Assembly (NCBI GenBank): GCA_965228875.1
Contig: OZ245843.1
Span: 664,616-728,615 of the forward strand
Direction of reading: 5' to 3'
Source of the DNA: Thalassobaculaceae bacterium
Lineage (GTDB): Bacteria > Pseudomonadota > Alphaproteobacteria > Thalassobaculales > Thalassobaculaceae
Length of the DNA: 64,000 nt
Part shown: positions 17,207 to 31,489 of the stretch, piece by piece
Layout of the letters: the number at the start of each line of letters is the position of its first letter
How positions within the stretch are numbered: position 1 is the stretch's first letter
Notes under the pieces: generated by a model
Databases searched by the model: none
The model's input: the letters and a program-made list of their open reading frames with translations, nothing else
What the model was told of the DNA's origin: nothing
Made by a program: the position numbers and the translations under genes

Positions 17207-17962
17207 TCAGATCGCCAGGTACTCGTGGCGCAGGTCGTCGTTGTCGAGAACCTCCTGGGCGGAGCCGTCGAACACGATCTGCCCCATGTCCAGGATCAGC
17301 GCCCGGTTGGCCAGGTGCAGGGCGGCGATGGCGTTCTGCTCGACGATGATGGTGGTGATCCCCATCTCCTTCACGCTTTCGAGGATGCCCTCGATCTCGC
17401 GCACGATGGTCGGCGCCAGCCCCTCGTAGGGCTCGTCCAGCAGCAGCAGCTTGAGGTCGCGCGCCAGTGCCCGGGCGACGGCCAGCATCTGCTGCTCGCC
17501 GCCGGACATGGTGATCGCCTCCTGACGTCGACGCTCGGCGAGCCGGGGGAAGTGGTCGTAGATGCGCTCCAGCGGCCAGCCGATCGGCTCCTCCACCTGG
17601 GAGAGCAGCAGATTCTCCTCGACGGTGAGGCCGGCGATGATCCGGCGGTCCTCCGGGACGAGCTGGATGCCCGACCGGGCGGCCTCGAAGGACCGCATGG
17701 CGTGCAACGGTTCGCCATGCAGCCACATCTGCCCGCCCATCAGCGCCGGGGTCTCGGTCCGGGCGATGGTCCGCAGGGTGGATGTCTTGCCGGCGCCATT
17801 GCGGCCGAGCAGGGCGACGATATCGCGTTCGCGGACGTCGAACGACACGCCCTGGACGATGTAGGACTCGCCGTAATAGGCGTGGATGTCCTGGACGCGG
17901 AAGAAGGCGTCGCTTGCGGCGCCGGACGCTTCCTGAACGGTGGTTGCGGCGGTGGCGTTCAT
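17207..17962 (-). CDS. HAAT-family ABC ATP-binding protein (LivF-like)
   Basis: GRNGAGKT, MSGGEQQMLAVARAL, LLDEP, IVEQN. Confidence 0.9.
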   Translation of the reverse strand: MNATAATTVQEASGAASDAFFRVQDIHAYYGESYIVQGVSFDVRERDIVALLGRNGAGKTSTLRTIARTETPALMGGQMWLHGEPLHAMRSFEAARSGIQLVPEDRRIIAGLTVEENLLLSQVEEPIGWPLERIYDHFPRLAERRRQEAITMSGGEQQMLAVARALARDLKLLLLDEPYEGLAPTIVREIEGILESVKEMGITTIIVEQNAIAALHLANRALILDMGQIVFDGSAQEVLDNDDLRHEYLAI

Positions 17963-17983
17963 GTCTACGGCCCTCTCTAGAGA

Positions 17984-18739
17984 CTACAGGTGGGCGCCGC
18001 CCAGATAGGCTTCCTGCACCTTGGGATTGCCCCGGATCTCCTCGGGCGTTCCTTCGGCGATGACGGTGCCCTGGGCAAGGACGGAGACCTTGTGGGCCAG
18101 CGAGAACACCACGTGCATGTCGTGTTCGATCACGATCTTGGTGATCCCGCGCTCGCCGATCCGCTTCAGCAGGTCGATGGTGTTGTTGGTGTCGGCCCGC
18201 GACATGCCGGCGGTCGGTTCGTCGAGCAGGAGCAGGCGCGGCTCCTGCACCAGGCACATGGCCAGTTCCAGGCGCCGCTTGTCGCCTCGGGACAGCGCGC
18301 CGGCATGGTCGGCCCGGTTGTCCGCGAGCCCGACGTCCTCGAGCATGTGCTGGGCGCGGTCTCGGATCTCCGCCTCGCCGTCGACGCGGGGCAGCCAGTT
18401 CAGCCGGAACGCGCCGTCGCGGTGGGCGAAGGCCGGGATCATCACGTTTTCCAGCAGCGAGAGGTCGGGAAAGATCTCCGGCGTCTGGAACACGCGGGCG
18501 ACGCCGAGCTGGTTGATCTCGTGCGGCCGACGGTTCAGCAGCGACTGGCCGTCGAACATGACGGTGCCGGTGTCCGGCTCCAGCCGGCCGACGAAGCAGT
18601 TCAGCAGCGTGGACTTGCCGGCGCCGTTCGGCCCGATGATGGCATGGACGTGACCCTGCTCCACCTTCAGGTTCACCTGGTTCAGTGCTCTCAGGCCGGC
18701 GAACGCCTTGTTCACGCCCTGGACGGTAAGGATCGACAT
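17984..18739 (-). CDS. HAAT-family ABC ATP-binding protein (LivG-like)
   Basis: GPNGAGKST, LLDEPTAGMS, IEHDM, VQEAYLG; start after AAGGAGGG. Confidence 0.9.
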   Translation of the reverse strand: MSILTVQGVNKAFAGLRALNQVNLKVEQGHVHAIIGPNGAGKSTLLNCFVGRLEPDTGTVMFDGQSLLNRRPHEINQLGVARVFQTPEIFPDLSLLENVMIPAFAHRDGAFRLNWLPRVDGEAEIRDRAQHMLEDVGLADNRADHAGALSRGDKRRLELAMCLVQEPRLLLLDEPTAGMSRADTNNTIDLLKRIGERGITKIVIEHDMHVVFSLAHKVSVLAQGTVIAEGTPEEIRGNPKVQEAYLGGAHL

Positions 18740-18753
18740 CTCCGCGCCCTCCT

Positions 18754-19911
18754 TCAGGCCGCGTCCGCAACGGAGGCGTTCTTCGCCTTGCCGTCGGAGC
18801 GTTTGAACATCGACTGCACCCGGCGCACGCCTTCCATGATGCCGCCCGGCAGGAAGATCACGATCAGCATGAACACCACGCCGAGGGTCAGGTGCCAGCC
18901 TTCGCCCACGAACAGGCCGCTGACCGAGACGAAGGCGTGCTGCAGCGTCTCCGGCAGGAAGCTGAAGATGCTCATCAGAACCTGATCGTTGAACGCCGAG
19001 AAGATGTTCTCGAAGTACTTGATGACGGCGGCACCGAGTACCGGACCCAGCAGAGTGCCGCTGCCTCCGAGGATGGTCATCAGCACCACTTCGCCGGATG
19101 CCGTCCACTGCATGCGCTCGGCGCCGGCCAGCGGGTCCGTCGACGCCAGCAGGGCTCCCGCCATTCCGGCATACATGCCGGAAATCACGAAGGCGGCGAG
19201 GGTGTAGGGCCGGGTGTTGAAGCCGGTGTAGTTCATGCGCGTCTGGTTCGACTTGATCGCCTTGAGCATGGTGCCGAACGGCGAGCGCGAGATCTTGAGC
19301 GCGATGAAGAAACCGATGATCAGCACGACCGCGCAGAAGTAGAAGCCGGGGTACCCCGTCATCTCGACCCCGAACAGCGAGGTCGTCGGCGTCGACACGG
19401 TGTCACGCTGGCCGGCCAGTTCCTCGAGGATGCGCGGATCGCTCGGCAGCACCGTGAGACCGGTCTCGCCGTTGGTGATCGGCGTCAGCACCGAGTAGGC
19501 GAGATTGTAGGACATCTGGGCGAAGGCCAGGGTCAGGATCGAGAAGTAGATCCCGGTCCGGCGCAGGCTGATGTAGCCGATCGCCACGGCGAAGAGGCCC
19601 GAGGTGATCATCGCGAAGAACACCGCCGGCAACACGTTCATCCCCAGCAGCTTGAACGACCAGACCGCCGTGTAGGAACCGACGCCGAGGAAGGCGGCGT
19701 GGCCGAAGGACAGGTATCCGGTGAGGCCGAACAGGATGTTGAAGCCGATCGCGAACAGGCCGTAGATCGCCCATTTCTGCAGGAGATCCGGGTAGCCGGC
19801 GCCGATGACGCTGGCCCAGATCGGCGCGGTCAGGACGGCGGCGGCGAACAGCACCAGGAAGATCAGGTCGGTGCGGGCGCTGCTGCCCAGCGCGGAGACG
19901 GTCGGGGCCAT
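18754..19911 (-). CDS. HAAT-family ABC permease (LivM-like)
   Basis: [38 protein letters not shown]. Confidence 0.9.
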
Positions 19912-19914
19912 CTG

Positions 19915-20931
19915 TTAACCCTCCATCACGCCCTTGCGGCCGAGAAGGCCACGGGGGCGGACTTGCAGAACGATCACGGCAACCAGGTAGATGATGATCT
20001 GGTCGATGCCGGGAATGATGGACTTCACCTCGTTCATCGAGGCGAAGGACTGAAGGATGCCGAGCAGGAACCCGGCCAGGACGGCACCCGGCAGCGAGCC
20101 CATGCCGCCGACGACGACGACGACGAAGGACAGGACCAGGAAGTCCATGCCGATGTGGTAGTCGGGCGGGAGGATCGGCGTGTACATGACGCCGGCCAGG
20201 CCGGCGACGATCGCGGCGATGCCGAAGACGATCGTGAAGCGTCGCTCGACATGGATGCCGAGAAGGCCCACCGTCTCGCGGTCCTGCATGCCGGCGCGCA
20301 CGACCATGCCGAAGGTTGTGAACTGCAGGAAGGCGAACACCATGCCGATCACCGCCAGAGAGAACAGCAGGTAGATCAGCCGCCAGTACGGGTAGACGAT
20401 GGTCCCGGGGACGCCGAACCAGGCGCCAAGGTCGGCGCTGCCCGCGACCGTCTCCGGCGCTGGGGTGGGGATCGGATTGGCCCCGAACTGCGCCTTGACC
20501 ACCTCCTGGAGTACGATGGCGAGGCCGAAGGTCACGAGAATCTGTTCGGCGTGGGAGCGGTTATAGAAGAACCGGACCAGGCCGCGCTCCATGATGAGCC
20601 CGATCACCAGCATGATCGGGATTGCCGCGATCACCGCGATCGGGACCGCGTAGTCGATGATTATCAGACCGGTGTCGCCGAACCAGGTCTCGAGGTAGGG
20701 GACCTCCTTGTAGGCATCGAAGAACGTGATGCTCTCGTCCTTCACTTTCTCCGACAGGGTCAGCAGCTTTTGGATCGTGACGGCGCAGAAGGCGCCGAGC
20801 ATGAACAGCGCGCCGTGGGCGAAGTTGACCACGCCGAGCGTGCCGAAGATCAGGGTCAGCCCGAGGGCGATCAGCGCATAGGCGCCGCCTTTGTCGAGCC
20901 CGTTCAATAATTGAAGAACGATGGCGTCCAT
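19915..20931 (-). CDS. HAAT-family ABC permease (LivH-like)
   Basis: YALIALGLTLIFGTLGVVNFAHG, VVVVGGMGSL, RPRGLLG. Confidence 0.9.
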   Translation of the reverse strand: MDAIVLQLLNGLDKGGAYALIALGLTLIFGTLGVVNFAHGALFMLGAFCAVTIQKLLTLSEKVKDESITFFDAYKEVPYLETWFGDTGLIIIDYAVPIAVIAAIPIMLVIGLIMERGLVRFFYNRSHAEQILVTFGLAIVLQEVVKAQFGANPIPTPAPETVAGSADLGAWFGVPGTIVYPYWRLIYLLFSLAVIGMVFAFLQFTTFGMVVRAGMQDRETVGLLGIHVERRFTIVFGIAAIVAGLAGVMYTPILPPDYHIGMDFLVLSFVVVVVGGMGSLPGAVLAGFLLGILQSFASMNEVKSIIPGIDQIIIYLVAVIVLQVRPRGLLGRKGVMEG

Positions 20932-21024
20932 GACGCGGTCCCCCCTCAGGGTATTCGGTTTTCTTAAGTATGCCGTCCGGACATCTGATCGACCATAAGT
21001 CGAGAGGCGTTCCGACGGGCAAGT

Positions 21025-21085
21025 CGGGGGCTCCCTTGCGGGAGCCCCCGGTCAGTCATTGCCGGGCGATGCCGTCCGGCATCGC
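21025..21085 (-). terminator. Two stem-loops after the substrate-binding gene
   Basis: CGGGGGCTCCC-TTGC-GGGAGCCCCCG (21025-21050) and GCGATGCCG-TC-CGGCATCGC (21066-21085). Confidence 0.6.
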
Positions 21086-21098
21086 GACCCGCACCCGG

Positions 21099-22442
21099 TC
21101 AGCCGTTGTTGCAGCTGCCGAGGCTGCCGGCGAACTGCGGGATGTTCGGGTCGTAGGTGACCTGCTCGCGCGGGACTTCCTGGACGACCTCCAGGATGTC
21201 GAACTGCGAGGACGGGTTCTCCTTACCCTTCACGACCAGCACCTTCTTGAAGCACTGGTGGTCGTCCTTGCGGTACAGGGTCGGGCCGTTGCCCATGCCG
21301 TCGAACTCGAAGCCCTCGAGGGCGGCGGCAATCTGGCAGGGCTCGAACGTGCCGGCGCGCTCGGCGGCGTCGGCGTAGAGCAGGGCCTGGACGTAGCAGG
21401 TGTGCGCGGCCTGGCTCGGCGGGAAACCGTACTCGGCGCCGAACGACTTCACGAAGGCCTGGGAGCCCGCGTCGCTCAGCGACCAGTGCCAGTTGGTCGA
21501 CCCGAAGATGCCCTTCACGTTCTCGCCCGCACCCTGAGCCATCAGGCGGCTGTAGAGCGGAACGACCACCGCGAAGTCCTTGCCGTTGACCTGCTTGTCG
21601 CGCAGACCGAACTGCACGGCCTGGGTCAGCGAGTTGACCATGTCCTTGCCGTAGTGGTTCAGCACCAGCACGTCGGCCCCGGAGTTCAGAACCGGCGTGA
21701 TGTACTGCGAGAAGTCACCGGCGCCCAGCGGCGTGCGGACCTTGTTGACGGTCTGCCAGCCGACGGCCTCGGTCGCGTTGGCGATCGACTCCTCCTGGGT
21801 CCAGCCCCAGGTGTAGTCGGCCGTCAGGTGGTAGGCCTTGCGGTCCTTGCCGTAGTTCGCCTCGAGCACCGGAGCCAGGGCGGCGCCGGACATGTAGGCG
21901 TTGAAGAAGTGGCGGAACCCGTTGGCCCGGCGATCCTTGCCGGTGGTGTCGTTCGAGTGGGTCAGACCGGCCATGAAGATGATGCCGGCTTCCTGACACA
22001 GCGACTGGACCGCAATGGCCACACCCGAGGAGGAGCCGCCGGTCACCATGACCACGCCGTCCTTCTCGATCATGCGCTTGGCCGAGGCGCGGGCGGCGTC
22101 GGACTTGGTCTGGGTGTCGCCCGTGACGTACTCGACCTTCTTGCCGAGGATGCCGTTGCCCTTGAGGGCCTTGGACGAGAAGGTGTTCAGCATGCCGCCG
22201 TCACCCTCGCCGTTGATGTGCTTGACGGCGAGCTGGTAGGCGCGCAGTTCGTCGGCGCCCTCGTCCGCGTACGCACCGGTCTGCGGCACGTTGAAGCCGA
22301 GGGTGACGGTGCCGCCCGTCGGCTCGTTCAGATAGGCGTTGGCGCGCTTGGTGAAGAAGTGCGGAGCGGCGAGGCCGGCGGTCAGCGCGACACCCCCCTT
22401 CATCATTGAGCGCCGCGAGACGCCCTTATCGAAGACGGTCAT
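21099..22442 (-). CDS. HAAT-family ABC substrate-binding protein, Tat-exported; substrate probably a short carboxylate
   Basis: SRRSMMKG twin-arginine signal, VPQTGAYADEG, GGSSSGVAIA, TADYTWGW; substrate inferred from the adjacent ScfR/SLC5-kinase genes. Confidence 0.85.
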   Translation of the reverse strand: MTVFDKGVSRRSMMKGGVALTAGLAAPHFFTKRANAYLNEPTGGTVTLGFNVPQTGAYADEGADELRAYQLAVKHINGEGDGGMLNTFSSKALKGNGILGKKVEYVTGDTQTKSDAARASAKRMIEKDGVVMVTGGSSSGVAIAVQSLCQEAGIIFMAGLTHSNDTTGKDRRANGFRHFFNAYMSGAALAPVLEANYGKDRKAYHLTADYTWGWTQEESIANATEAVGWQTVNKVRTPLGAGDFSQYITPVLNSGADVLVLNHYGKDMVNSLTQAVQFGLRDKQVNGKDFAVVVPLYSRLMAQGAGENVKGIFGSTNWHWSLSDAGSQAFVKSFGAEYGFPPSQAAHTCYVQALLYADAAERAGTFEPCQIAAALEGFEFDGMGNGPTLYRKDDHQCFKKVLVVKGKENPSSQFDILEVVQEVPREQVTYDPNIPQFAGSLGSCNNG

Positions 22443-22568
22443 TGTTTCCTCCCGTACGGTCTTCGTCCCTGCCGCGTCGTTCCATCTGATGATGATTTAG
22501 TGACGGTCCCCGATGACGCGTTTCGCACCACGAACCCGGACTGCGGCTATACGACTGTAGAGGGTAAC

Positions 22569-22657
22569 TGAAAATTTGCAAACTAAGTTGTTGTTTTGAA
22601 TTGACAAATTTGTCAATTTGAGACACAACGCAACTGCAAAAGTGTAAATTTATGACA
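22569..22657. promoter_or_regulatory. Operator array for the XRE/ScfR regulator
   Basis: TTTGCAAA at 22575-22582, perfect 20-bp palindrome AATTGACAAATTTGTCAATT at 22599-22618, TGCAAA/TGTAAA at 22635 and 22643, all in an AT-rich divergent promoter. Confidence 0.7.
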
Positions 22658-22713
22658 GATCCGGCGGTTGGCGAGCCGCTGTCGGCTCCGTCGCGGGGAG
22701 GAGGGGACGCGGT

Positions 22714-24300
22714 ATGGCCCTGGAACTGGCGGGGTTTCGGATCCGGGAGCGGCGCAAGCAGATCGGCCTGACCCAGGCCGGGTTGGCCAAGGCCGTCGGC
22801 ATTTCGCCCTCCTATCTGAACCTGATCGAGGCGAGCAAACGCAACATCGCCGGCGGGCTGCTGAACCGGATCGCCCAGGCGCTGGACCTGGACGCCGAGA
22901 CGCTGGCGGGTACGACGGAACGTCGGGTGATCGACGACCTGCGCGAGATGGCCGCCGATCCCCGCCTGCGCGGAACACGGTTGCCGGAGGAGGGGGCGCA
23001 GGACCTGGTCGCACGCCATCTCGACTGGGCGCAGTCGATCCTGGCGCTGTATCGCGCCTACCTGGATCAGGCGGAAACCGTCTCGGCGCTGTCCGACAGA
23101 CTGAGCCGGGACCCCTTCCTCGGCGATCTGGTTCACCAGGTGCTCACGCACATCACCACCCTGCGCTCGGTGTCGGAGATCCTGGAGAACGTCGACGACA
23201 TGCCGGCGGAGCAGCAGCGCCGCTTCCAGGGCATGATGACCGAGGAGAGCGCCAAGCTCAGCGACGTCGCCCAGACGCTGACCGACTTCTTCGAGGTCAC
23301 GGAGGCCGACACCCGTTCGGTCACGCCGGCCGAGGAGGTCGACGACTTCCTGATCGAGCGCCGGAACCACTTCGCCGAAATCGAGGTCGCTGCCGGGGCC
23401 ATGCGGCGGGAGGTCGAACGCCAGGGCGAGACGATGATGAGCGCGCTGATCGACTATCTCGATCGGACCCACGGCGTCACGGTGGTCAATCGCGGGCGCG
23501 ATTCCGCGGCGCCCGTCGCCGGAGAACGGTTCCGCAACCATTGCCGCTACGAGCGCGACAGCCGGACGCTGGTGTTCCTGGACAACGCCTCGATCTCCAC
23601 CCGGCGCTTTCAGTTGGCGCGACTCGCCGCCGAGCTGACGCTCGGCGATGCGATCCGGGCCGAGATCGACGACCCCCGCCTGTCGACCGAGGCGGCCCGG
23701 GCCCAGGCGTTCCGTGTCCTGGCGTCCTACGCGGCAAGCGCGGCGCTGCTGCCGTACGACAGCTTTCTGGCGGATGCCGTGGACTGCCGGTACGACATCG
23801 AGGTGCTGCGCCAGCGCTACGCGGCGAGCTTCGAACAGGTGGCCCACCGTCTGATCACCCTGCGTCGGCGCGGCGCCGAGGGGATTCCCTTCGCCTTCCT
23901 GCGCTCGAATCCGGCGGGGCATGCGACCAAGCGGTTTCCGCTGCCCGGCCTGCCGCTCCCGCGCTACGGCCATGCCTGTCCGCTCTGGGCGATCTACCAG
24001 TCGTTCCAGACCCCGGACAGGGTGGTCCGTCAGCTCGCGGAGTTTCCGGACCGGGGTCGGTTTCTGTTCATCGCCCGGACCGTCACCAAGCAGCCGGCCA
24101 CGTTCCACGAGCCTCCGGTGCTGCATTCCGTCATGCTGGCCTGCGAGGCGATGCATGCGGACGAGACCGTCTATGCCGACGGTCTGGATCTCAGCGCCCG
24201 CGAGATGGCCGCCCGGGTCGGCCCGAGCTGCCGTCTCTGCCCGCGTCTGGACTGCCTGCACAGGGAGGAAGAACCGATCGTCCGCAGCGAGGTGCCCTGA
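22714..24300 (+). CDS. XRE/ScfR-family (RamB/PrpR/PccR-like) transcriptional regulator with an internal HisKA-like segment
   Basis: N-terminal HTH (LTQAGLAKAVGISPSYLNLIE), ALLPYDSF, SFEQVAHRLITL, CPLW, C-terminal CRLCPRLDCLHR; extra segment VHQVLTHITTLRSVSEIL. Confidence 0.9.
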   Translation: MALELAGFRIRERRKQIGLTQAGLAKAVGISPSYLNLIEASKRNIAGGLLNRIAQALDLDAETLAGTTERRVIDDLREMAADPRLRGTRLPEEGAQDLVARHLDWAQSILALYRAYLDQAETVSALSDRLSRDPFLGDLVHQVLTHITTLRSVSEILENVDDMPAEQQRRFQGMMTEESAKLSDVAQTLTDFFEVTEADTRSVTPAEEVDDFLIERRNHFAEIEVAAGAMRREVERQGETMMSALIDYLDRTHGVTVVNRGRDSAAPVAGERFRNHCRYERDSRTLVFLDNASISTRRFQLARLAAELTLGDAIRAEIDDPRLSTEAARAQAFRVLASYAASAALLPYDSFLADAVDCRYDIEVLRQRYAASFEQVAHRLITLRRRGAEGIPFAFLRSNPAGHATKRFPLPGLPLPRYGHACPLWAIYQSFQTPDRVVRQLAEFPDRGRFLFIARTVTKQPATFHEPPVLHSVMLACEAMHADETVYADGLDLSAREMAARVGPSCRLCPRLDCLHREEEPIVRSEVP

Positions 24301-24448: not shown

Positions 24449-24817
24449 GTGCCGGCACATGTGCTGATCGCCGAGGACGAGCCCAATATCGTCGAATCCC
24501 TCAGTTTCATCCTGAGTCGGGAAGGCTGCGAGGTGACGGCGGTGTTCGATGGCAGGGCCGTGATCGACAAGATCGCGACCATGAGGCCGGATCTGGTGAT
24601 TCTCGACGTGATGCTGCCGAAGATGAACGGGTTCGAGGTCCTGAAATGGATCAAGACCAACCCCGATCTGCGCAGCGTGCCGGTGATGATCCTCACCGCC
24701 AAGGGCCAGGACAAGGACCGCAAGACGGCGGAGGAACTCGGCGCAGACGCCTTCGTGACCAAGCCGTTCTCGAACCGCGAAGTGGTGGAACGGGTCATCA
24801 CGCTGGCCACGGCCTGA
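24449..24817 (+). CDS. Single-domain response regulator
   Basis: IAEDE, ILDVMLP (phospho-Asp), LTAKG, TKPF; no output domain. Confidence 0.92.
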   Translation: MPAHVLIAEDEPNIVESLSFILSREGCEVTAVFDGRAVIDKIATMRPDLVILDVMLPKMNGFEVLKWIKTNPDLRSVPVMILTAKGQDKDRKTAEELGADAFVTKPFSNREVVERVITLATA

Positions 24818-24835
24818 CTCCGCGCGGTGCGGACC

Positions 24836-25096
24836 ATGTCGGCGCGGCCAGCCCCCACCAAGATCCGTGACGCCGTCGCGCTGATGGTTCTGGTCGGCAC
24901 CTGGCTCGTCATGCCGCCGATGCTCAGCGTGGTGAACCAGCCGACATCGCTGTTCGGTATTCCCAGTCTGGTCGTCTACGTGTTCGCGGTCTGGGCGGTG
25001 CTCATCGTGTTCACCCGGATCATGGCGCGCCGCGCCGGTCAGGCACTGGAACGCGAGGAAACGGAAGCGGCGGTCCCGGAGCGGGAGATCGACTGA
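24836..25096 (+). CDS. Small two-TM membrane protein translationally coupled to the kinase
   Basis: Two hydrophobic helices (second contains LFGIPSLVVYVFAVW); TGA overlaps the kinase ATG. Confidence 0.75.
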   Translation: MSARPAPTKIRDAVALMVLVGTWLVMPPMLSVVNQPTSLFGIPSLVVYVFAVWAVLIVFTRIMARRAGQALEREETEAAVPEREID

Positions 25097-27819
25097 TGCT
25101 GTCGGCCGACGTCGTTCTCGCCACCGCGCTCGCCTACGTGGCGCTGCTGTTCCTTGTCGCGTTCGTCAGCGACCGCCGCGCCCGCAGCGGCCGGGTCGGG
25201 CTGGCCCATTCTCCGCTGATCTACACGCTGTCGATCTCGGTCTACTGCACCTCCTGGACCTTCTACGGCGCGGTCGGCTCGGCCGCGCGCAGCGGCCTCG
25301 AGTTCATCACCATCTATCTCGGCCCGACCCTGGTCTTCGTCGGCTGGTGGTTCGTGCTGCGCAAGCTGGTGCGCATCGGCCGGGTTCACCGGATCTCCTC
25401 GGTCGCCGATCTGGTCTCCTCGCGCTATGGCAAGAGCACGACGCTCGCGGTGCTGGTGACCGTGATCGCGGTGATCGCGAGCACGCCGTACATCGCCCTC
25501 CAGCTCAAGGCGGTGACGATCAGCTTCTCGGTCGTCGGCAGCGCCGGCAACGAGGCGGTCCTGGACGTCTACACCGCGTTCTGGGTGGCCGCCGGCATGG
25601 CCGCCTTCACCATCCTGTTCGGCACCCGCAACATCGACGCCAACGAGCGCCACCACGGGGTGGTGGCCGCCATCGCGCTGGAGGCGCTGGTCAAGCTGGT
25701 CGCCCTGCTGGCGGTCGGCGGGTTTGTGGTCTTCGGCGTCGCCGGCGGGCTGGACGAGGTGTTCGCCATGCCGGGCGCGGCGGTCGTGGTCGACCCGGAC
25801 GCCGTGTTCGGCCCGCGCTGGGTGGCGATGACGTTTCTGGCCGGTACCGCCATCCTCTGTCTGCCGCGACAGTTCCAGGTCACGGTCGTGGAGAACGCCG
25901 ACGAGGGGCAGCTGCGAACCGCGTCCTGGCTGTTCCCGCTCTACCTGTTCCTGATGTGCTGCTCGATCATGCCGATCGCCATCGCCGGCCTGACCCTGTT
26001 GCCGCCGGGGTCGAACCCGGACATGTTCGTCCTGACCCTGCCGATGGCCCAGGGGCAGGATGCGCTGGCGCTGCTGGCGTTCATCGGCGGCTTCTCCTCG
26101 GCGACCTCCATGGTGATCGTCGCCTGCATCGCCCTGTCGATCATGGTTTCCAACCACATCGTCATCCCGGTGGTGCTGCGCCTGCCGGTGCTGAGCCGGG
26201 CGATCAGCGGCGACATGAAGCGGCTGCTCCTGTTCAGCCGGCGGATCAGCATCGCGCTGCTGCTGCTGCTCGGTTTCGGCTACTTCGTCGCCAGCGCCCA
26301 GTCCGACGCCCTGGCGGCGATGGGGCTGATCGCCTTCGCCGGGGTGGCGCAGATCCTCCCGGCCATGGTCGGCGGCCTGTACTGGCGATCGGCCTCGAAG
26401 GCGGGGGCCGCGGCCGGCATGTTCGTCGGGTTCGTGCTGTGGATGTACACGCTGGTGCTGCCGAACTTCGAGGGCGTGTGGCTGGTGTCGTCGGTTCTGA
26501 TCGAGCAGGGGCCCTGGGGCATCGGCTGGCTGCGACCGCACGCGCTGTTCGGCATGCCGGGCAGCGATCCGCTGGTCCATTCGGTGTTCTGGAGCATCAG
26601 CTTCAACGTGCTGATGTTCGTCGTCGTCTCGCTGATCCGCGAGCAGAATCCGCTGGAGCGCCTGCAGGGCACCCTGTTCGTCGACGTGTTCCGCAACCCG
26701 GCGGAGAGCGAGGGGCGGTTCATCAGTCGCTCGGCGACGATCGACGACCTCTACATCATGACCCAGCGCATCCTCGGCGCCGAGGAGGCCCAGCGGGTGT
26801 TCGCCGAATTCGCCCAGCGCCAGGGCGGTGTCGGCGACATGCCGCGTCCGGATGCCGCCTTCATCGCCCATCTGGAGCGGCTGCTCGCCGGTGGCATCGG
26901 GGCCGCCTCGGCGCGGGTGATGATCAGTCAGGTGGTGACCGGCGAGACCATCAGCCTGGACGAACTGATCCGGCTGGTGGACGAGACCCAGCAGGTGATC
27001 GAGTACTCCCAGCGCCTGGAGGCCAAGAGCCAGGAGCTGCAGGAGACCGCCAAGGCGCTGCAGGACGCCAACGAGCGGCTGCGCATGCTGGACGCCCAGA
27101 AGGACGACTTCCTCAGTCAGGTCAGCCACGAGGTCCGCACGCCGATGGCCTCGATCCGCTCGTTCTCCGAGATCCTGCTGGACAATCCGGACCTGGAATC
27201 CGACCGCGCGCGCAAGTACCTGAAGATCATTCAGGACGAGACCCTGCGCCTGTCCCGTCTGCTCGACGAGATCCTCGACGTCTCCCATCTCGACAGCGGT
27301 CAGTTCGCGTTGCGGCTGGAGGATGTCGACGGCGCGCGGATCCTCGAGCATGCGGTCGAGACCAGCCGGGGCATGGCCGCCAGCGCCGGCGTGTTGATCG
27401 ACTACGGCCCCTGCGTCGCCGAAGCGCCGATCCGTGCCGACGGCGACAGGCTGGCCCAGGTGTTCATGAACGTCCTTTCCAACGCCATCAAGTACAACAC
27501 CAGCGAGCACCCGCAGGTGACGGTCAGCAGCCGGATCGATGACGGTGTCTATTTCGCCTATGTCGATGACAACGGTCCTGGCATTCCGGCCGAAGACCGG
27601 GAGCGGATCTTCGCCAAGTTCGCGCGCGGCCGCGAGCTGACGCTGCGCCATCGCACCGGCGCGGGGCTCGGTCTGGCGATCAGCCGCAGCATCGCCCGCA
27701 TGCTCGGTGGCGACCTGGAGCTGCTGCCGGAACCTGGGCGCAGCGCCGGACGGGGCGGGGCGCGTTTCCGCGTCAGGTTGCCTCTGCGGGCCGAGACGGC
27801 AGCGGCGGCGGGTGAATAG
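25096..27819 (+). CDS. SLC5 (sodium:solute symporter)-STAC-HisKA-HATPase sensor kinase (CrbS/CbrA/PrlS-like, no receiver)
   Basis: YTLSISVYCTSWTFYGAVG, TPYIALQLKA, LPRQFQVTVVEN; ERLLAGGIGAASARVMI (STAC); SHEVRTP H-box, NAIKY, DNGPGI, GLGL. Confidence 0.92.
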   Translation: MLSADVVLATALAYVALLFLVAFVSDRRARSGRVGLAHSPLIYTLSISVYCTSWTFYGAVGSAARSGLEFITIYLGPTLVFVGWWFVLRKLVRIGRVHRISSVADLVSSRYGKSTTLAVLVTVIAVIASTPYIALQLKAVTISFSVVGSAGNEAVLDVYTAFWVAAGMAAFTILFGTRNIDANERHHGVVAAIALEALVKLVALLAVGGFVVFGVAGGLDEVFAMPGAAVVVDPDAVFGPRWVAMTFLAGTAILCLPRQFQVTVVENADEGQLRTASWLFPLYLFLMCCSIMPIAIAGLTLLPPGSNPDMFVLTLPMAQGQDALALLAFIGGFSSATSMVIVACIALSIMVSNHIVIPVVLRLPVLSRAISGDMKRLLLFSRRISIALLLLLGFGYFVASAQSDALAAMGLIAFAGVAQILPAMVGGLYWRSASKAGAAAGMFVGFVLWMYTLVLPNFEGVWLVSSVLIEQGPWGIGWLRPHALFGMPGSDPLVHSVFWSISFNVLMFVVVSLIREQNPLERLQGTLFVDVFRNPAESEGRFISRSATIDDLYIMTQRILGAEEAQRVFAEFAQRQGGVGDMPRPDAAFIAHLERLLAGGIGAASARVMISQVVTGETISLDELIRLVDETQQVIEYSQRLEAKSQELQETAKALQDANERLRMLDAQKDDFLSQVSHEVRTPMASIRSFSEILLDNPDLESDRARKYLKIIQDETLRLSRLLDEILDVSHLDSGQFALRLEDVDGARILEHAVETSRGMAASAGVLIDYGPCVAEAPIRADGDRLAQVFMNVLSNAIKYNTSEHPQVTVSSRIDDGVYFAYVDDNGPGIPAEDRERIFAKFARGRELTLRHRTGAGLGLAISRSIARMLGGDLELLPEPGRSAGRGGARFRVRLPLRAETAAAAGE

Positions 27820-27874
27820 CCGGAACTCGGTGCTATATCCCTGGCGGTCCGGTCATCTCCGCGGAAGGCGTCGC

Positions 27875-28459
27875 ATGTCCCCCACTGAGAGCATTGACGC
27901 GTCAGCGCTGCGCCTGGATGTCCGCGACGGTCTTCCGGAGACCTTGCGCGTCCTGGTCGCGGCGCTGCCGGCGGAAAGCTGGCCGGCGCATCCCGGATTT
28001 GATGGGCTGACCCGGTTCTGGCTGGAGAAGCATGCCGCGTTCCGCCGGCTGCTTGAGACGATCCGCGCCGATGCCGGTACTGCGGCGGCCGGCGACATGG
28101 CGGCGGAGCGGTACGTTCCCCAACTGCACCGCCAGGCGAGCATGCTGCTCGGCGACCTCCACGGTCATCACACGGTCGAGGACGCGCACTATTTCCCGCA
28201 GCTCCGCCGGTTGGAGCCTTCGGTGGCGCGCGGCTTCGACCTGCTGGAGGCGGATCACCGGGACCTGGACGCCCGCCTGCACGCCTTCGCGGAGGGCGTG
28301 AACGGCGTTCTGGGGGCGGCTCAGGGCGGGTCGCCGCTGCCGGACGTCGTCGAGCCGTTCGCCGCCACGGTGGGCGGCTTCGGACGATTGCTCGACCGGC
28401 ACCTGGTCGACGAGGAGGAGATCGTCATCCCCGCTCTTCTCAGGCTGTCCGGCGGGTGA
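27875..28459 (+). CDS. Hemerythrin-like (HHE) domain protein
   Basis: WLEKH, LHGHHTVEDAHYFP, LEADH, RHLVDEEEIVIP metal-ligand motifs. Confidence 0.85.
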   Translation: MSPTESIDASALRLDVRDGLPETLRVLVAALPAESWPAHPGFDGLTRFWLEKHAAFRRLLETIRADAGTAAAGDMAAERYVPQLHRQASMLLGDLHGHHTVEDAHYFPQLRRLEPSVARGFDLLEADHRDLDARLHAFAEGVNGVLGAAQGGSPLPDVVEPFAATVGGFGRLLDRHLVDEEEIVIPALLRLSGG

Positions 28460-28812: not shown

Positions 28813-31263
28813 TCAGATGAGATAGTCGGCGTTGAACTGGAACATCCGGCCTTCGTCCGCGCCGTAGAACAGATAGTGGATCACGGGGTTGAGACCGGAG
28901 GCGGCAACGTCCGGATTGTCCGCAAGATAGGCATCGGCGTCGAACCACCGGGACGGATCTCGTCCCTCCTGGTGGCCGAACGTCGTGTAGTGCAGGAACG
29001 GGTTGACGCCCTGCTCCCGCACGTCCGGGTTCTCGTCCAGGTAGGCGTTGCCGTCGAACAGCATATTGGGATCCCGACCCTCCAGTCCGCCGGAGTCCAG
29101 GTAGTGGTTGTAGGCGGTCGTCTGGTCGTATCCGGACCGGGCCACATCCGGATTGCTCTCCAGATAGGTTACCGCATCGAAGCCGGCGATGTCGGTTCCG
29201 TCGACCGTGTCGACCAACCTGTTGCCGTCGTCGAAGGCGACGATCTCGACATCGCTGAGAATGTCGGTCTCGCTGCCGTAGACCACCTGAACCGTCCCGT
29301 CGGGCAGGATGCTGAGGCTGTAGTCGCTCGACAGGCCCGTGTACCGCGCGATGTCGGTCCCGCGGCCACCGTCCAGGTAGTCGTCCCCGTCGCCCCCGAA
29401 AAGAAAGTCCTCGCCACGGCCGCCGAACAGGCTGTCCGCGCCGTCGGATCCCACCAGCGTGTCGTCGCCGTCGCCGGTGTAGGCGGTCTCGATGACGGTA
29501 CCCGTCGCGAGCGAGAAGTCGGCGGTGCCGATCGAGCCGACGCCGCCGTCCAGTCGGATGACCGCGTCGACGGTGAGTGCGGCGGCGTTGATCTGATCGG
29601 TGCCGCCATCCGTGTCCGACAGGACGGACCGGGTGGTGTCCGCGGCCGCCAGGTCGACGTACTGATCGGTGTAGATGTAGCGGTCGTCGACCGTCGTCTC
29701 GCCCCCGTACAGGGACAGGGAACTGGATTCCAGGACCGCTCCGCCCTCCGAAGACATGTCGGTGATCTCGAGGGTCCAGGTACCGAGCGCCGACTCGCCA
29801 TATGACTGGGTCGTCATGAGATCGGCGTCGTCGGTCGTCAGGAAAGTGAGAATGACGTTCTCCGTGCCGTCATCGTCACCGTCACCGTCATCGTCGGTAG
29901 AGTTCGGATCGAAATGATCGTAGATGTCGTAGTCCGGCGTGTGGGCCAGATAGCTTACTGTCCCGTCCGGAGAGGTGAGGGCGATCTGAAGGTTGCCGAT
30001 GAAGCCGTTGCTGATGTCGAGCGATACGACCGCTTCCTCGACCCGCATGTCCAGGGTGACCTCGAAGGTCTCGACGACACTCGCGCTGCCTCCCGAGGGC
30101 AGCGACTGTGCCGACCCGCCGCTGATCGTCTGGATGTCCAGGTTGGCGTGCGTCCGCGCTACCGATGTCCAGGTCTCGGCAAGCCGGACGGCGGCCGCGG
30201 CGTCGACCTGGCCGAAGCCGAAGTCATGGCTGACCGTCAACCCGCCGCCGTTCCAGTCCTCGGCGCCGTTCGTCTGCTCGACCCACGGGTAGGCGAGGAC
30301 CTGAGCCACGGCGCTCGTGACGAAGGGCTCGTCCTCGGAGGAAAAGGTTTCGGTTCCCAAGAAACGGGAGTGGCCGGCCAGGAGCTCGGCTTCAGTCAGC
30401 GCCGATGCGCCGGTGTCATAGGCCGAATAGGCGAGGATGTCCTTGATGTCGCGGTATCCCAGTGTCGGGTTCGCTTCGAGGACCAGGGCTGCCACACCGG
30501 AGACGATGGGGGCGGAAAACGAGGTTCCGGTCGAATCAGCATACCCGTCATCGAAGCCGCTGACGCCAAAGACCTCGTCGCCTGGAGCGGCGACGAAGAC
30601 GTTCGAGCCCGGCGTCGAGAAGGTCGCGATCTTGCCGTCGCTGTCGGTCGCCGCAACCGAGATCTGAAATGGAGAATTGGTCGTTCGATCGGAGACGGCC
30701 TGCATGGTCGTCAGACGGTCGTTTCCGGCGGCGAACACGTTCAGGGTTCCAAGACCCTCCCGGCCATCCCGCGCGAGACTCTCGGTCGCGTCGGGCTCGG
30801 ACACGGTCAGAAAGAACACATTGCCGTAGCTGTTGTTGGTGACATCGGCGAAGTCCGCATGGGCCAGCGCCTCGTTCGTGTCCGCGAACACGCCCTCGTC
30901 GTCGGTGACACGGATACCGGTGAGCGTGGCGCCCCAGGCGACTCCGACCCCCAGGTTGCCGTCGAGGGCCGACGAGGCGAATCCGCCAACCGCGGTGCCG
31001 TGGGAGTCACTGTCGACGACCGGAGCCGCGTCGTCGCTCCCGGTAACGGAATTATAGTCGAGTTCCGTATCGTAGACGGGAGCGAGATCCGGATGGGTGT
31101 AGCGGACGCCATCGTCGACGATCGCAATCAGGACGCCGGCACCTGAGTAGTCGAACCAGGCCTCCGTGGCCCGGATGTCCATGCCGGCGGTTCCGAAGAA
31201 CTCTCCGGTGTTGTCGAGATGCCACTGCGCTGCGAACAGCGGTTCGGATGGATAGTAATGCAC
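28813..31263 (-). CDS. S8 (kexin-like) serine peptidase with P-domain, RTX Ca-binding repeats and C-terminal repeats
   Basis: Catalytic VDDGV / SHGTAV / AAGND / GTSFSAP, FGFG, GTWTLEITD, GGxGxD repeats; GTG start assumed. Confidence 0.9.
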   Translation of the reverse strand: MHYYPSEPLFAAQWHLDNTGEFFGTAGMDIRATEAWFDYSGAGVLIAIVDDGVRYTHPDLAPVYDTELDYNSVTGSDDAAPVVDSDSHGTAVGGFASSALDGNLGVGVAWGATLTGIRVTDDEGVFADTNEALAHADFADVTNNSYGNVFFLTVSEPDATESLARDGREGLGTLNVFAAGNDRLTTMQAVSDRTTNSPFQISVAATDSDGKIATFSTPGSNVFVAAPGDEVFGVSGFDDGYADSTGTSFSAPIVSGVAALVLEANPTLGYRDIKDILAYSAYDTGASALTEAELLAGHSRFLGTETFSSEDEPFVTSAVAQVLAYPWVEQTNGAEDWNGGGLTVSHDFGFGQVDAAAAVRLAETWTSVARTHANLDIQTISGGSAQSLPSGGSASVVETFEVTLDMRVEEAVVSLDISNGFIGNLQIALTSPDGTVSYLAHTPDYDIYDHFDPNSTDDDGDGDDDGTENVILTFLTTDDADLMTTQSYGESALGTWTLEITDMSSEGGAVLESSSLSLYGGETTVDDRYIYTDQYVDLAAADTTRSVLSDTDGGTDQINAAALTVDAVIRLDGGVGSIGTADFSLATGTVIETAYTGDGDDTLVGSDGADSLFGGRGEDFLFGGDGDDYLDGGRGTDIARYTGLSSDYSLSILPDGTVQVVYGSETDILSDVEIVAFDDGNRLVDTVDGTDIAGFDAVTYLESNPDVARSGYDQTTAYNHYLDSGGLEGRDPNMLFDGNAYLDENPDVREQGVNPFLHYTTFGHQEGRDPSRWFDADAYLADNPDVAASGLNPVIHYLFYGADEGRMFQFNADYLI

Positions 31264-31489
31264 TGTGCCCCCCGCACCTTTTTCCGATGCCTGCGGTCGT
31301 GTCGGTCCCGCGCGTTCCCTCGACACGTGCCGCCATAGCGGTCGCTTCACTCCCGGATGACGGAAGGGTAGTCAGATACGCTTGCGTATGGGAGACCCGA
31401 AATCCGACGGGGGGCTGCCCCTTATGCTACGGGCCCATCGGCCGGGTCGAGCGTTCCCGGCTTCGGGGGAGGCGGCAGCCCGAGAGGAA

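Follow-up and report, generated by a model that had tools for sequence, protein, structure and literature searches.

The locus and its genes

The subject of this analysis is a DNA-binding regulator encoded in a 64,000-nucleotide stretch of DNA from a Thalassobaculaceae bacterium (contig OZ245843.1), here called the window; gene coordinates are window positions, and XRE denotes the product of the regulator gene at 22714..24300 on the forward strand. XRE is an ScfR/PrpR-type transcription factor of 528 amino acids, recognized from its open reading frame (ORF), its Pfam families, and its match to PrpR. Pfam places a helix-turn-helix (HTH) domain at residues 10-62, an IrrE/M78-like domain at 265-380, and the ScfRs C-terminal domain at 382-524. 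Between the first two of these, the predicted secondary structure has a long helix (residues 103-132; 23020..23109, forward strand) running into an inserted DHp-like helical hairpin at residues 134-202 (23113..23319, forward strand; α1 134-159, α2 165-197). The hairpin is defined by its absence from PrpR and from a paralog, by its predicted helices, by profile comparison with hhalign, and by its match to the kinase HK853. It carries His141 (codon CAC, 23134..23136, forward strand), which aligns with the phospho-His of the neighboring kinase and is distinguished by its conservation and by its position in a predicted receiver interface.

Three further genes follow on the same strand. A single-domain response regulator of 122 amino acids, a receiver only, is encoded at 24449..24817 (Pfam Response_reg, E 4.9e-30); Pfam finds no other domain in it, and thus no output domain. 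Across 51 orthologs of this receiver E9, D10, D53, and K105 are invariant, and T83 is kept in at least 90%. Next comes an 89-amino acid small membrane protein (24827..25096), found as an ORF whose stop codon shares 1 nt with the start of the kinase gene (TGATG). It has no match in family searches, but a homolog is present in 63 of 80 genomic loci, which were fetched out of 593 confirmed matches and serve for all locus comparisons below. By position it is CbrX-like, cbrX being a small upstream membrane ORF that overlaps the start of its kinase gene (PMC6591292; PMC13488458).

The fourth gene, at 25096..27819, encodes a 907-amino acid sensor histidine kinase with an SLC5 domain (residues 9-461), HisKA (668-735; E 1.9e-17), and HATPase_c (782-898; E 4.2e-24). 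No Pfam family is found in residues 1-601; residues 9-461 match PDB 10ed_A at E 1.5e-69, and according to PMC13488458, PDB 10ED is the SLC5-STAC part of Pseudomonas CbrA. By homology, the neighboring kinase is therefore of the SLC5/CbrA type, an SLC5-like transporter domain fused to DHp-CA. Its DHp (HisKA 668-735; 27097..27300, forward strand; His678 at 27127-27129) is the nearest relative of the XRE insert by Pfam, BLASTP, and hhalign. A longer class of kinase (frames of ~1100-1420 amino acids; G061, G063, G288, and others) has the same transporter-like domain at 35-49% identity and is found both in genomes that have the XRE cassette and in genomes that lack it; these are presumed to be hybrid CrbS/CbrA-like kinases.

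An insert in an ScfR-type regulator

Pfam matches XRE to ScfRs (E 1e-45), HTH_3 (3.9e-12), and Peptidase_M78 (1.3e-10). A family profile of 47 sequences matches Mycobacterium tuberculosis PrpR (6cyj) at E 2.4e-84, and Foldseek with the full XRE model finds 6cyy at E 1.4e-22; this full-model search returned only PrpR, IrrE, and HTH proteins and so was uninformative on the insert. Cys422, Cys506, Cys509, and Cys514 are invariant in the 47 sequences, and the motif that they form, one Cys plus C-X2-C-X4-C, agrees with the ligands of the [4Fe-4S]/coenzyme A (CoA) site of PrpR in PMC6765138. Because these PrpR-type ligands are retained, the regulator probably senses acyl-CoA too. The RamB equivalog model NF038139 scores 325.3 bits against a cut-off of 700, and its two matched stretches skip the insert.

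A shorter form of the regulator (~430-470 amino acids) occurs in loci L056, L057, L060, L061, and L070-L080 (e.g., L075:6902-8293), most of the records being labelled Rhodobacterales. Both the HTH and the DHp insert are retained in this form, with 40% identity over residues 5-224, and roughly residues 225-334 of the IrrE-like domain are missing; its C-terminal domain is more divergent, with C-X2-C-X4-C still present. Many family representatives belong to the same length class.

Alignment identifies XRE residues ~134-202 as an insertion relative both to PrpR and to the ScfR paralog of the same genome. The 47-sequence profile aligns with PrpR in two blocks (64-124 with chain residues 19-78, and 204-515 with 96-402), and the stretch between them has no counterpart. 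The only other ScfR paralog in the genome matches XRE 5-133 and 203-522, without the residues between. In the AlphaFold models the helices at 103-132, 134-159, and 165-197 make up a long helix followed by a two-helix hairpin, and the hairpin is predicted in both the full-length model (pLDDT 81.4) and the domain-only model (pLDDT 75.6), in agreement with an earlier reading of this DNA made from the letters alone (the sequence-only reading), which required the segment to be a helical hairpin. A dimeric four-helix bundle is seen only inside the complex model described below.

Homology of the insert to the kinase DHp

The sequence-only reading had proposed that XRE contains a histidine-kinase DHp segment matching that of its neighbor, and the alignment on which it relied is exact in coordinates and residues: 23113-23262 encodes XRE P134-S183, 27106-27255 encodes kinase D671-S720, and the two align without gaps with 16 of 50 residues identical. 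The phospho-His is retained as claimed, the codons at 23134 and 27127 both being CAC (His141 and His678), and, counting from this His, XRE does have Gln at H+1, Thr at H+4, and RSxSEIL at H+10 to H+16. The claim that XRE lacks an ATPase domain also holds, with no Pfam HATPase_c match at E<=1.

When the two whole proteins are compared by BLASTP, the top pair is XRE 121-200 with kinase 650-734 (27/88 identical, 31%, E 7e-7 for this single comparison). An insert profile from 63 loci aligns by hhalign with the profile of the neighboring-kinase DHp at a probability of 99.4% (E 3.9e-21, 56 columns). A 75-sequence insert profile searched against all PDB sequences has HK853 chains at the top (E 0.0014), with the His of the insert on the phospho-His, and DivL lower (E 0.22). 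The NCBIfam kinase models CreC, VanS, and PhoR give weak matches within XRE 105-210. As judged by these profile comparisons, the insert is a true DHp homolog, and the similarity is beyond chance.

The closest relative of the insert is the kinase encoded beside it. Among 30,128 ORFs of at least 80 residues from the same genome, the insert profile gives the neighboring kinase 36.7 bits (E 5.9e-9) and the kinase ranked after it 15.1 bits; in the reverse search, the cognate-kinase DHp profile puts XRE 8th, above most of the ~49 HisKA-type ORFs. A tree was built from 62-residue DHp segments, 22 each from inserts and cognate kinases and 31 from other kinases of the genome that contains the window. 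The inserts form a single clade (support 0.98) that falls within the cognate kinases, and the joint clade of inserts and cognate kinases (support 0.948) leaves 30 of the 31 other kinases outside, with one foreign kinase inside. This placement points to a single copying event that took the insert from this kinase lineage, although the tree is taken as indicative because the alignment is short.

Conservation and gene linkage

The insert defines a large family. Its profile matches 2230 cluster representatives at E<=0.001; at E<=1e-10 there are 522 clusters (50% identity), from Alpha- and Betaproteobacteria plus some records labelled Gammaproteobacteria. The best 150 representatives are all at most 554 amino acids long, with the module at ~95-210, and the 120 relatives listed at 50% identity or more are all 450-576 amino acids. 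His141 was tallied in four partly overlapping sequence sets and is present in 45/47 (with 2 Tyr), 117/120, 60/63 (2 Asn, 1 Arg), and 143/148 representatives, which bears out its expected conservation. The H+4 position is Ser or Thr in 143 of the 148 representatives. The H+1 position is Gln, Arg, or Lys in 109 of the 120 close relatives, and Glu or Asp in 64 of the 148 family representatives. On the docking face, the residues common to insert and kinase in 63 locus pairs are Arg at H+10 (56 pairs), Ser at H+11 (47), Glu at H+14 (48), and Ile at H+15 (55).

The insert is present in 78 of the 80 loci, with the XRE frame split in 3 of these; the two insert-less loci are actinobacterial, and neither has a receiver or kinase match in the locus. 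In 62 of the 78 insert-bearing loci the receiver and kinase genes lie within 7 kb: in 56 the genes share one strand in the order XRE-receiver-small-kinase, 5 have a convergent arrangement, and in one the partners are 4 kb away. Six of the other 16 loci end at a contig or locus edge near XRE (L003, L032, L040, L051, L062, L066), in L044 and L056 the partner genes sit at the edge of the locus, in L004 and L030 a receiver is present without a kinase, and six loci have neither partner within the locus. When five partner-less genomes were searched whole, four had a full-length kinase ortholog elsewhere. Across the 80 loci, XRE is the only DNA-binding regulator to recur in the cassette, and there is a single recurring receiver gene. 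In L067, L068, and L069 the XRE gene is spread over two or three frames, with receiver and kinase intact; these splits could be frameshifts or metagenome-bin assembly errors. L069 has Asn at the His position.

Co-occurrence was also examined in a sample of 301 alphaproteobacterial genomes. The kinase transporter domain is found in 62 genomes and the insert in 31, all among those 62. A whole-protein query added two insert genes, so that 33 of 33 insert-positive genomes carry the kinase, compared with 62 of 301 overall.

Sister cassettes with an exonuclease

Six of the seven loci that are kinase-positive and XRE-negative (L081, L083-L087; e.g., L085:3459-5609 and L083:3078-5780) encode instead a protein in which a DHp-like segment is combined with PAS and an RNase_T exonuclease domain. 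This protein has 707-901 residues (stop-to-stop frames), and its gene is flanked by that of the same receiver on one side and by the small-ORF/kinase pair on the other. By hhalign, its DHp-like segment matches the kinase DHp at 97.1% and the XRE insert at 97.5%, and the His position is occupied by Glu in all six. These substitutions show, at the level of the residues present, that phosphotransfer to the His is not needed at least in the exonuclease cassettes, and the occurrence of the segment in a second type of protein suggests that it is a portable docking module. One of these loci has in addition, downstream of the cassette (L086:6940-8199), a 420-amino acid kinase-like ORF whose DHp matches the cognate-kinase profile at 52 bits; it has Pro at the His position and is a possible pseudo-kinase.

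A predicted complex of receiver and regulator

The complex that was modeled consists of one receiver and XRE 100-205 in two copies. The calibration mark for such models is reached by 116 of 157 solved complexes and by 2 of 215 mismatched pairs, although the custom alignments and the two-copy chain used here differ from the calibration. The complex passes this mark with an ipSAE of 0.65 (runs 0.65, 0.63, 0.66), compared with 0.00 for the best control; the runs share at least 93% of contacts, and the partner pLDDT is at least 84. The predicted interface comprises XRE residues 140-141, 144-145, 147-153, 155-156, 159-160, 167, 171, 174, and 178, residues 179-190 of the second copy, and receiver residues 11-24, 55, 84, and 104-110. 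The model sets α1 and the β5-α5 loop of the receiver on XRE 140-160 beside His141, which is the canonical kinase-receiver pose.

The sequence-only reading had held that the receiver encoded between the two genes docks on both proteins and passes phosphate to His141 or binds allosterically. This interpretation is partly supported: docking of the receiver on the regulator is predicted by the model and is well motivated, while an obligatory relay is weakened by the members without His, by the H+12 position, and by weak covariation, as set out below.

Promoter region and likely targets

Divergent from the regulator gene is a Liv-type ABC transporter operon (17207..22442, reverse strand), with a binding protein (21099-22442; Pfam Peripla_BP_6, E 4.7e-70), two permeases (19915-20931 and 18754-19911; BPD_transp_2), and an ATPase (17207-17962; ABC_tran). 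A homolog of the binding protein is found in 70 of the 80 loci. The best NCBIfam match of this protein is UrtA, at 67 bits against a cut-off of 493, and no substrate was assigned.

A perfect 16-bp palindrome lies in the divergent promoter region (22601..22616, on neither strand in particular); the window has no other of this kind, and 0.04 would be expected by chance. Upstream sequences were compared using window positions 22443-22713 and the 330 bases before the XRE genes of L001-L080. A box of the form T(T/C)TGT(A/C)AA(T) occurs upstream of most orthologs, often as two copies 31-32 bp apart (e.g., L010, L014, L022, L029, L032, L044, L056, L067). The 8-mer found most often is TTTACAAA, which 44 of the 80 upstream regions contain (those of the window and of 79 loci). 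Besides the palindrome, the window has a near-box at ~22642-22650. The canonical ScfR box TTTGCAAA was rejected as the family operator, as it was found only in the window and L001 among 12 upstream regions (the window and 11 loci). The palindrome and the T(T/C)TGT(A/C)AA boxes are candidate operators, and we infer that the regulator likely acts on its own operon and on the divergent ABC transporter.

Other neighboring genes include an ORF with a hemerythrin domain (27707-28459, forward strand; Pfam E 1.8e-16) directly 3' of the kinase gene, which among the 80 loci is common only with the closest relative, L001. An 845-amino acid ORF (28813-31350, reverse strand) has in its C-terminal part repeated motifs resembling NPDV...HY...G...EGR.

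Proposed mechanism and alternatives

The reading favored here, with confidence somewhat above even, is that the regulator is the output of the cassette: the receiver would dock on a DHp hairpin acquired from the kinase lineage and thereby alter regulator activity. In the proposed mechanism, the CbrA-type SLC5 "transceptor" kinase, with its CbrX-like small partner, would phosphorylate the single-domain receiver. The receiver, having no output domain of its own, would then dock through α1 and the β5-α5 loop on the DHp hairpin of the regulator, and docking beside His141 would change regulator activity at the promoter region shared by the ABC transporter operon and the regulator's own gene. The helix at 103-132, which links the hairpin to the HTH, probably transmits docking, possibly as a lever. 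The regulator could in this way combine an outside signal, a solute at the transporter domain, with an inside signal, acyl-CoA. How the phosphoryl group would move is a separate matter. Transfer to His141 is one tentative version of the mechanism, and docking with or without dephosphorylation is another that we hold just as tentatively.

A more elaborate version makes the regulator the terminal acceptor of a His-Asp-His relay, in which phospho-His141 in a four-helix bundle, and not a phospho-Asp receiver, would switch DNA binding in the same protein that reads acyl-CoA through its Fe-S module; copied DHp hairpins would then serve as portable sockets through which a single receiver could control unrelated effectors, such as this regulator and the PAS-exonuclease. 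The His is kept in ~97% of members, unlike in the exonuclease proteins, and this points to a chemical role. As a whole we consider this version possible but rather doubtful.

Several observations weigh against docking and relay alike, some of them against an obligatory relay in particular. The His is replaced by Tyr, Asn, Arg, Leu, or Phe in ~3% of members, and the His-less loci L042, L065, and L069 keep the receiver and kinase. The specificity position H+12 is Phe in 59 of 63 kinases and small in the inserts, being identical in 5 of 63 pairs. Matching of insert and kinase residues within loci is weak (387 compared with 366 +/- 11.6, with 68 of 2000 shuffles at least as high, in a test uncorrected for phylogeny). 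Mutual information between receiver columns and insert or kinase columns (48 triplets; normalized means 0.34 and 0.33) is dominated by shared ancestry and was set aside as uninformative. Seven genomes have an orthologue-type kinase without an insert-bearing XRE, and L058 (Rhodocyclus tenuis) carries the insert with no full-length kinase ortholog found genome-wide; the whole-genome kinase search covered five genomes, those of L004, L030, and L037 not among them. The co-occurrence with receiver and kinase foreseen by the sequence-only reading is thus found as linkage (62/78 loci, 33/33 genomes) and fails in its strictness. Pfam HisKA (PF00512) on XRE 135-192 does not reach its threshold (14 bits against 26.9, E 0.054), and precomputed domains place PF00512 in none of the 120 listed relatives, so that the expected relation to HisKA is borne out by profile-profile homology to the kinase DHp and not by the Pfam score. 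Foldseek with the insert alone gives nothing at E<=0.001, ranks 1-13 being kinase DHp domains at E 0.14-0.9, and VIA-align of the insert against 48,161 chains has HK853 at rank 28 (Z 8.4), with unrelated hairpins at Z 8-9.6; since the fold matches include many unrelated hairpins and are unspecific, identification of the insert by structure alone was rejected. Finally, the success of the complex model shows likeness and may be a memory of solved complexes such as HK853-RR468.

Other roles for the hairpin have been considered. The XRE DHp could act as a feedback phosphatase or phosphate sink that only drains the phosphorylated receiver, so that the regulator tunes the system and the receiver acts elsewhere. 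According to PMC3510030, in HisKA kinases the acid at H+1 is needed only for kinase activity and the Thr or Asn at H+4 only for phosphatase activity; Gln at H+1 together with Thr at H+4 therefore fits a DHp that is kinase-dead and phosphatase-competent, as do the Ser or Thr at H+4 in 143 of 148 representatives and the lack of an ATPase domain in XRE. However, Glu or Asp is kept at H+1 in 64 of the 148 representatives, Ser occurs at H+4 as often as Thr does, and a role confined to draining would leave the cassette without an output, no other regulator recurring beside the receiver and kinase. We regard this explanation as improbable. A second alternative, to which we give about the same low probability, is that the hairpin is a relic that only dimerizes or tetramerizes the regulator, its kinase likeness being inherited and its His structural. 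DHp domains are dimerization modules, PrpR is an oligomer in which the corresponding linker DII (81-152) is disordered (PMC6765138), the fold searches return a generic hairpin, and covariation with the partners is weak. A relic would leave unexplained why a solvent-facing His is kept in 97% of members, together with Ser or Thr at H+4 and Arg, Ser, and Glu at H+10, H+11, and H+14, in more than 500 clusters, and why one kinase family is present in all 33 insert-positive sampled genomes.

The copied DHp might also pair with the kinase itself, forming a mixed four-helix bundle with the kinase DHp that tethers the regulator to the membrane or inhibits the kinase, with the receiver not touching XRE. 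The cognate kinase DHp being the nearest relative of the insert would suit such pairing, as would the hydrophobic core-like residues that the two have in common (Leu at -5, Ile at H+9 and H+15, Leu at H+16, Phe at H+30, and Leu at H+41). Conservation is not confined to the core, however, since the His and the polar surface positions (Arg at H+10, Ser at H+11, Glu at H+14) are conserved too; the receiver gene lies between the XRE and kinase genes in 56 of 62 loci, and the complex model puts the receiver on the docking face with high confidence. Pairing with the kinase is accordingly the least probable of these explanations, and receiver docking on the hairpin is the reading carried forward here.

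Relation to known systems and significance

XRE shares with the ScfR regulators PrpR, RamB, and PccR the HTH_3, IrrE/M78-like, and ScfRs domains and the [4Fe-4S]/CoA Cys ligands (PMC6765138), but it has ~69 extra residues (134-202) replacing part of the short disordered linker DII and is typically accompanied by the two-component cassette (62/78 loci). The closest mention in the literature found concerns the ScfR homolog Pden_1785 of Paracoccus denitrificans, a candidate member of this family, which PMC10370305 notes, without studying it, as clustering with a two-component system. Neither a transcription factor with a DHp nor this cassette is described in any paper that a literature search turned up, Carter & Alber 2015 (on ScfR classes) lying outside its reach; the search likewise returned no characterized ScfR regulator of this kind, as the sequence-only reading had supposed.

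The insert resembles the HisKA DHp of HK853-RR468 and EnvZ in its hairpin, its H-box His, the Thr or Ser at H+4, and a receiver face below the His, and the predicted XRE pose likewise uses receiver α1 and β5-α5. It differs in that XRE has no ATP-binding domain, has Gln at H+1 and His rather than Pro at H+5, and embeds the module in a DNA-binding protein. Spo0B and ChpT are DHp-type bundles with a pseudo-ATPase domain that cannot autophosphorylate; they meet a single-domain receiver, as in Spo0F-Spo0B, and phosphate is passed on to a second response regulator. Transfer from Asp to His in XRE would be chemically analogous and reversible, but the cassette has no second regulator, and the His-bearing XRE itself is the DNA-binding output. 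DivL is a pseudo-kinase with Tyr at the His position and the ATPase domain kept; it binds phosphorylated DivK and regulates another kinase. The DivL-DivK pair is alike in that a single-domain receiver docks on a DHp and no phosphotransfer takes place. DivL is also among the weak matches of the insert (Foldseek ranks 6 and 8), and Tyr occupies the His position in 2/47 and 2/148 members. In contrast to DivL, the His is kept in ~97% of members and the host protein is a transcription factor.

With the SLC5/STAC kinases (CbrA-CbrX-CbrB, CrbS/R, RpuS/R) the neighboring kinase shares a CbrA-like N-terminal domain and an overlapping small upstream ORF. The partners of the CrbS/R and RpuS/R kinases are classical response regulators with DNA-binding outputs, while the partner of the window kinase is a receiver only. 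CbrA too signals to a classical response regulator with a DNA-binding output, CbrB (PMC13488458). The RpuS/R paper makes no mention of "XRE", "helix-turn-helix", "single domain", or "stand-alone".

Wiring of a kinase to a regulator through a copied DHp is probably a newly described type of two-component wiring, and the His-less DHp of the sister exonuclease cassettes suggests that the principle is general. How single-domain response regulators act on their targets is a question that keeps returning in two-component signaling, and this locus offers a testable answer for a large conserved family. If the docking reading is true, it would provide a new way of wiring a kinase to a transcription factor that is not a receiver protein, and it would explain the output of this subfamily of CbrA-like "transceptors". 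It would also be a natural case of domain copying that rewires specificity, and could serve as a template for synthetic circuits.

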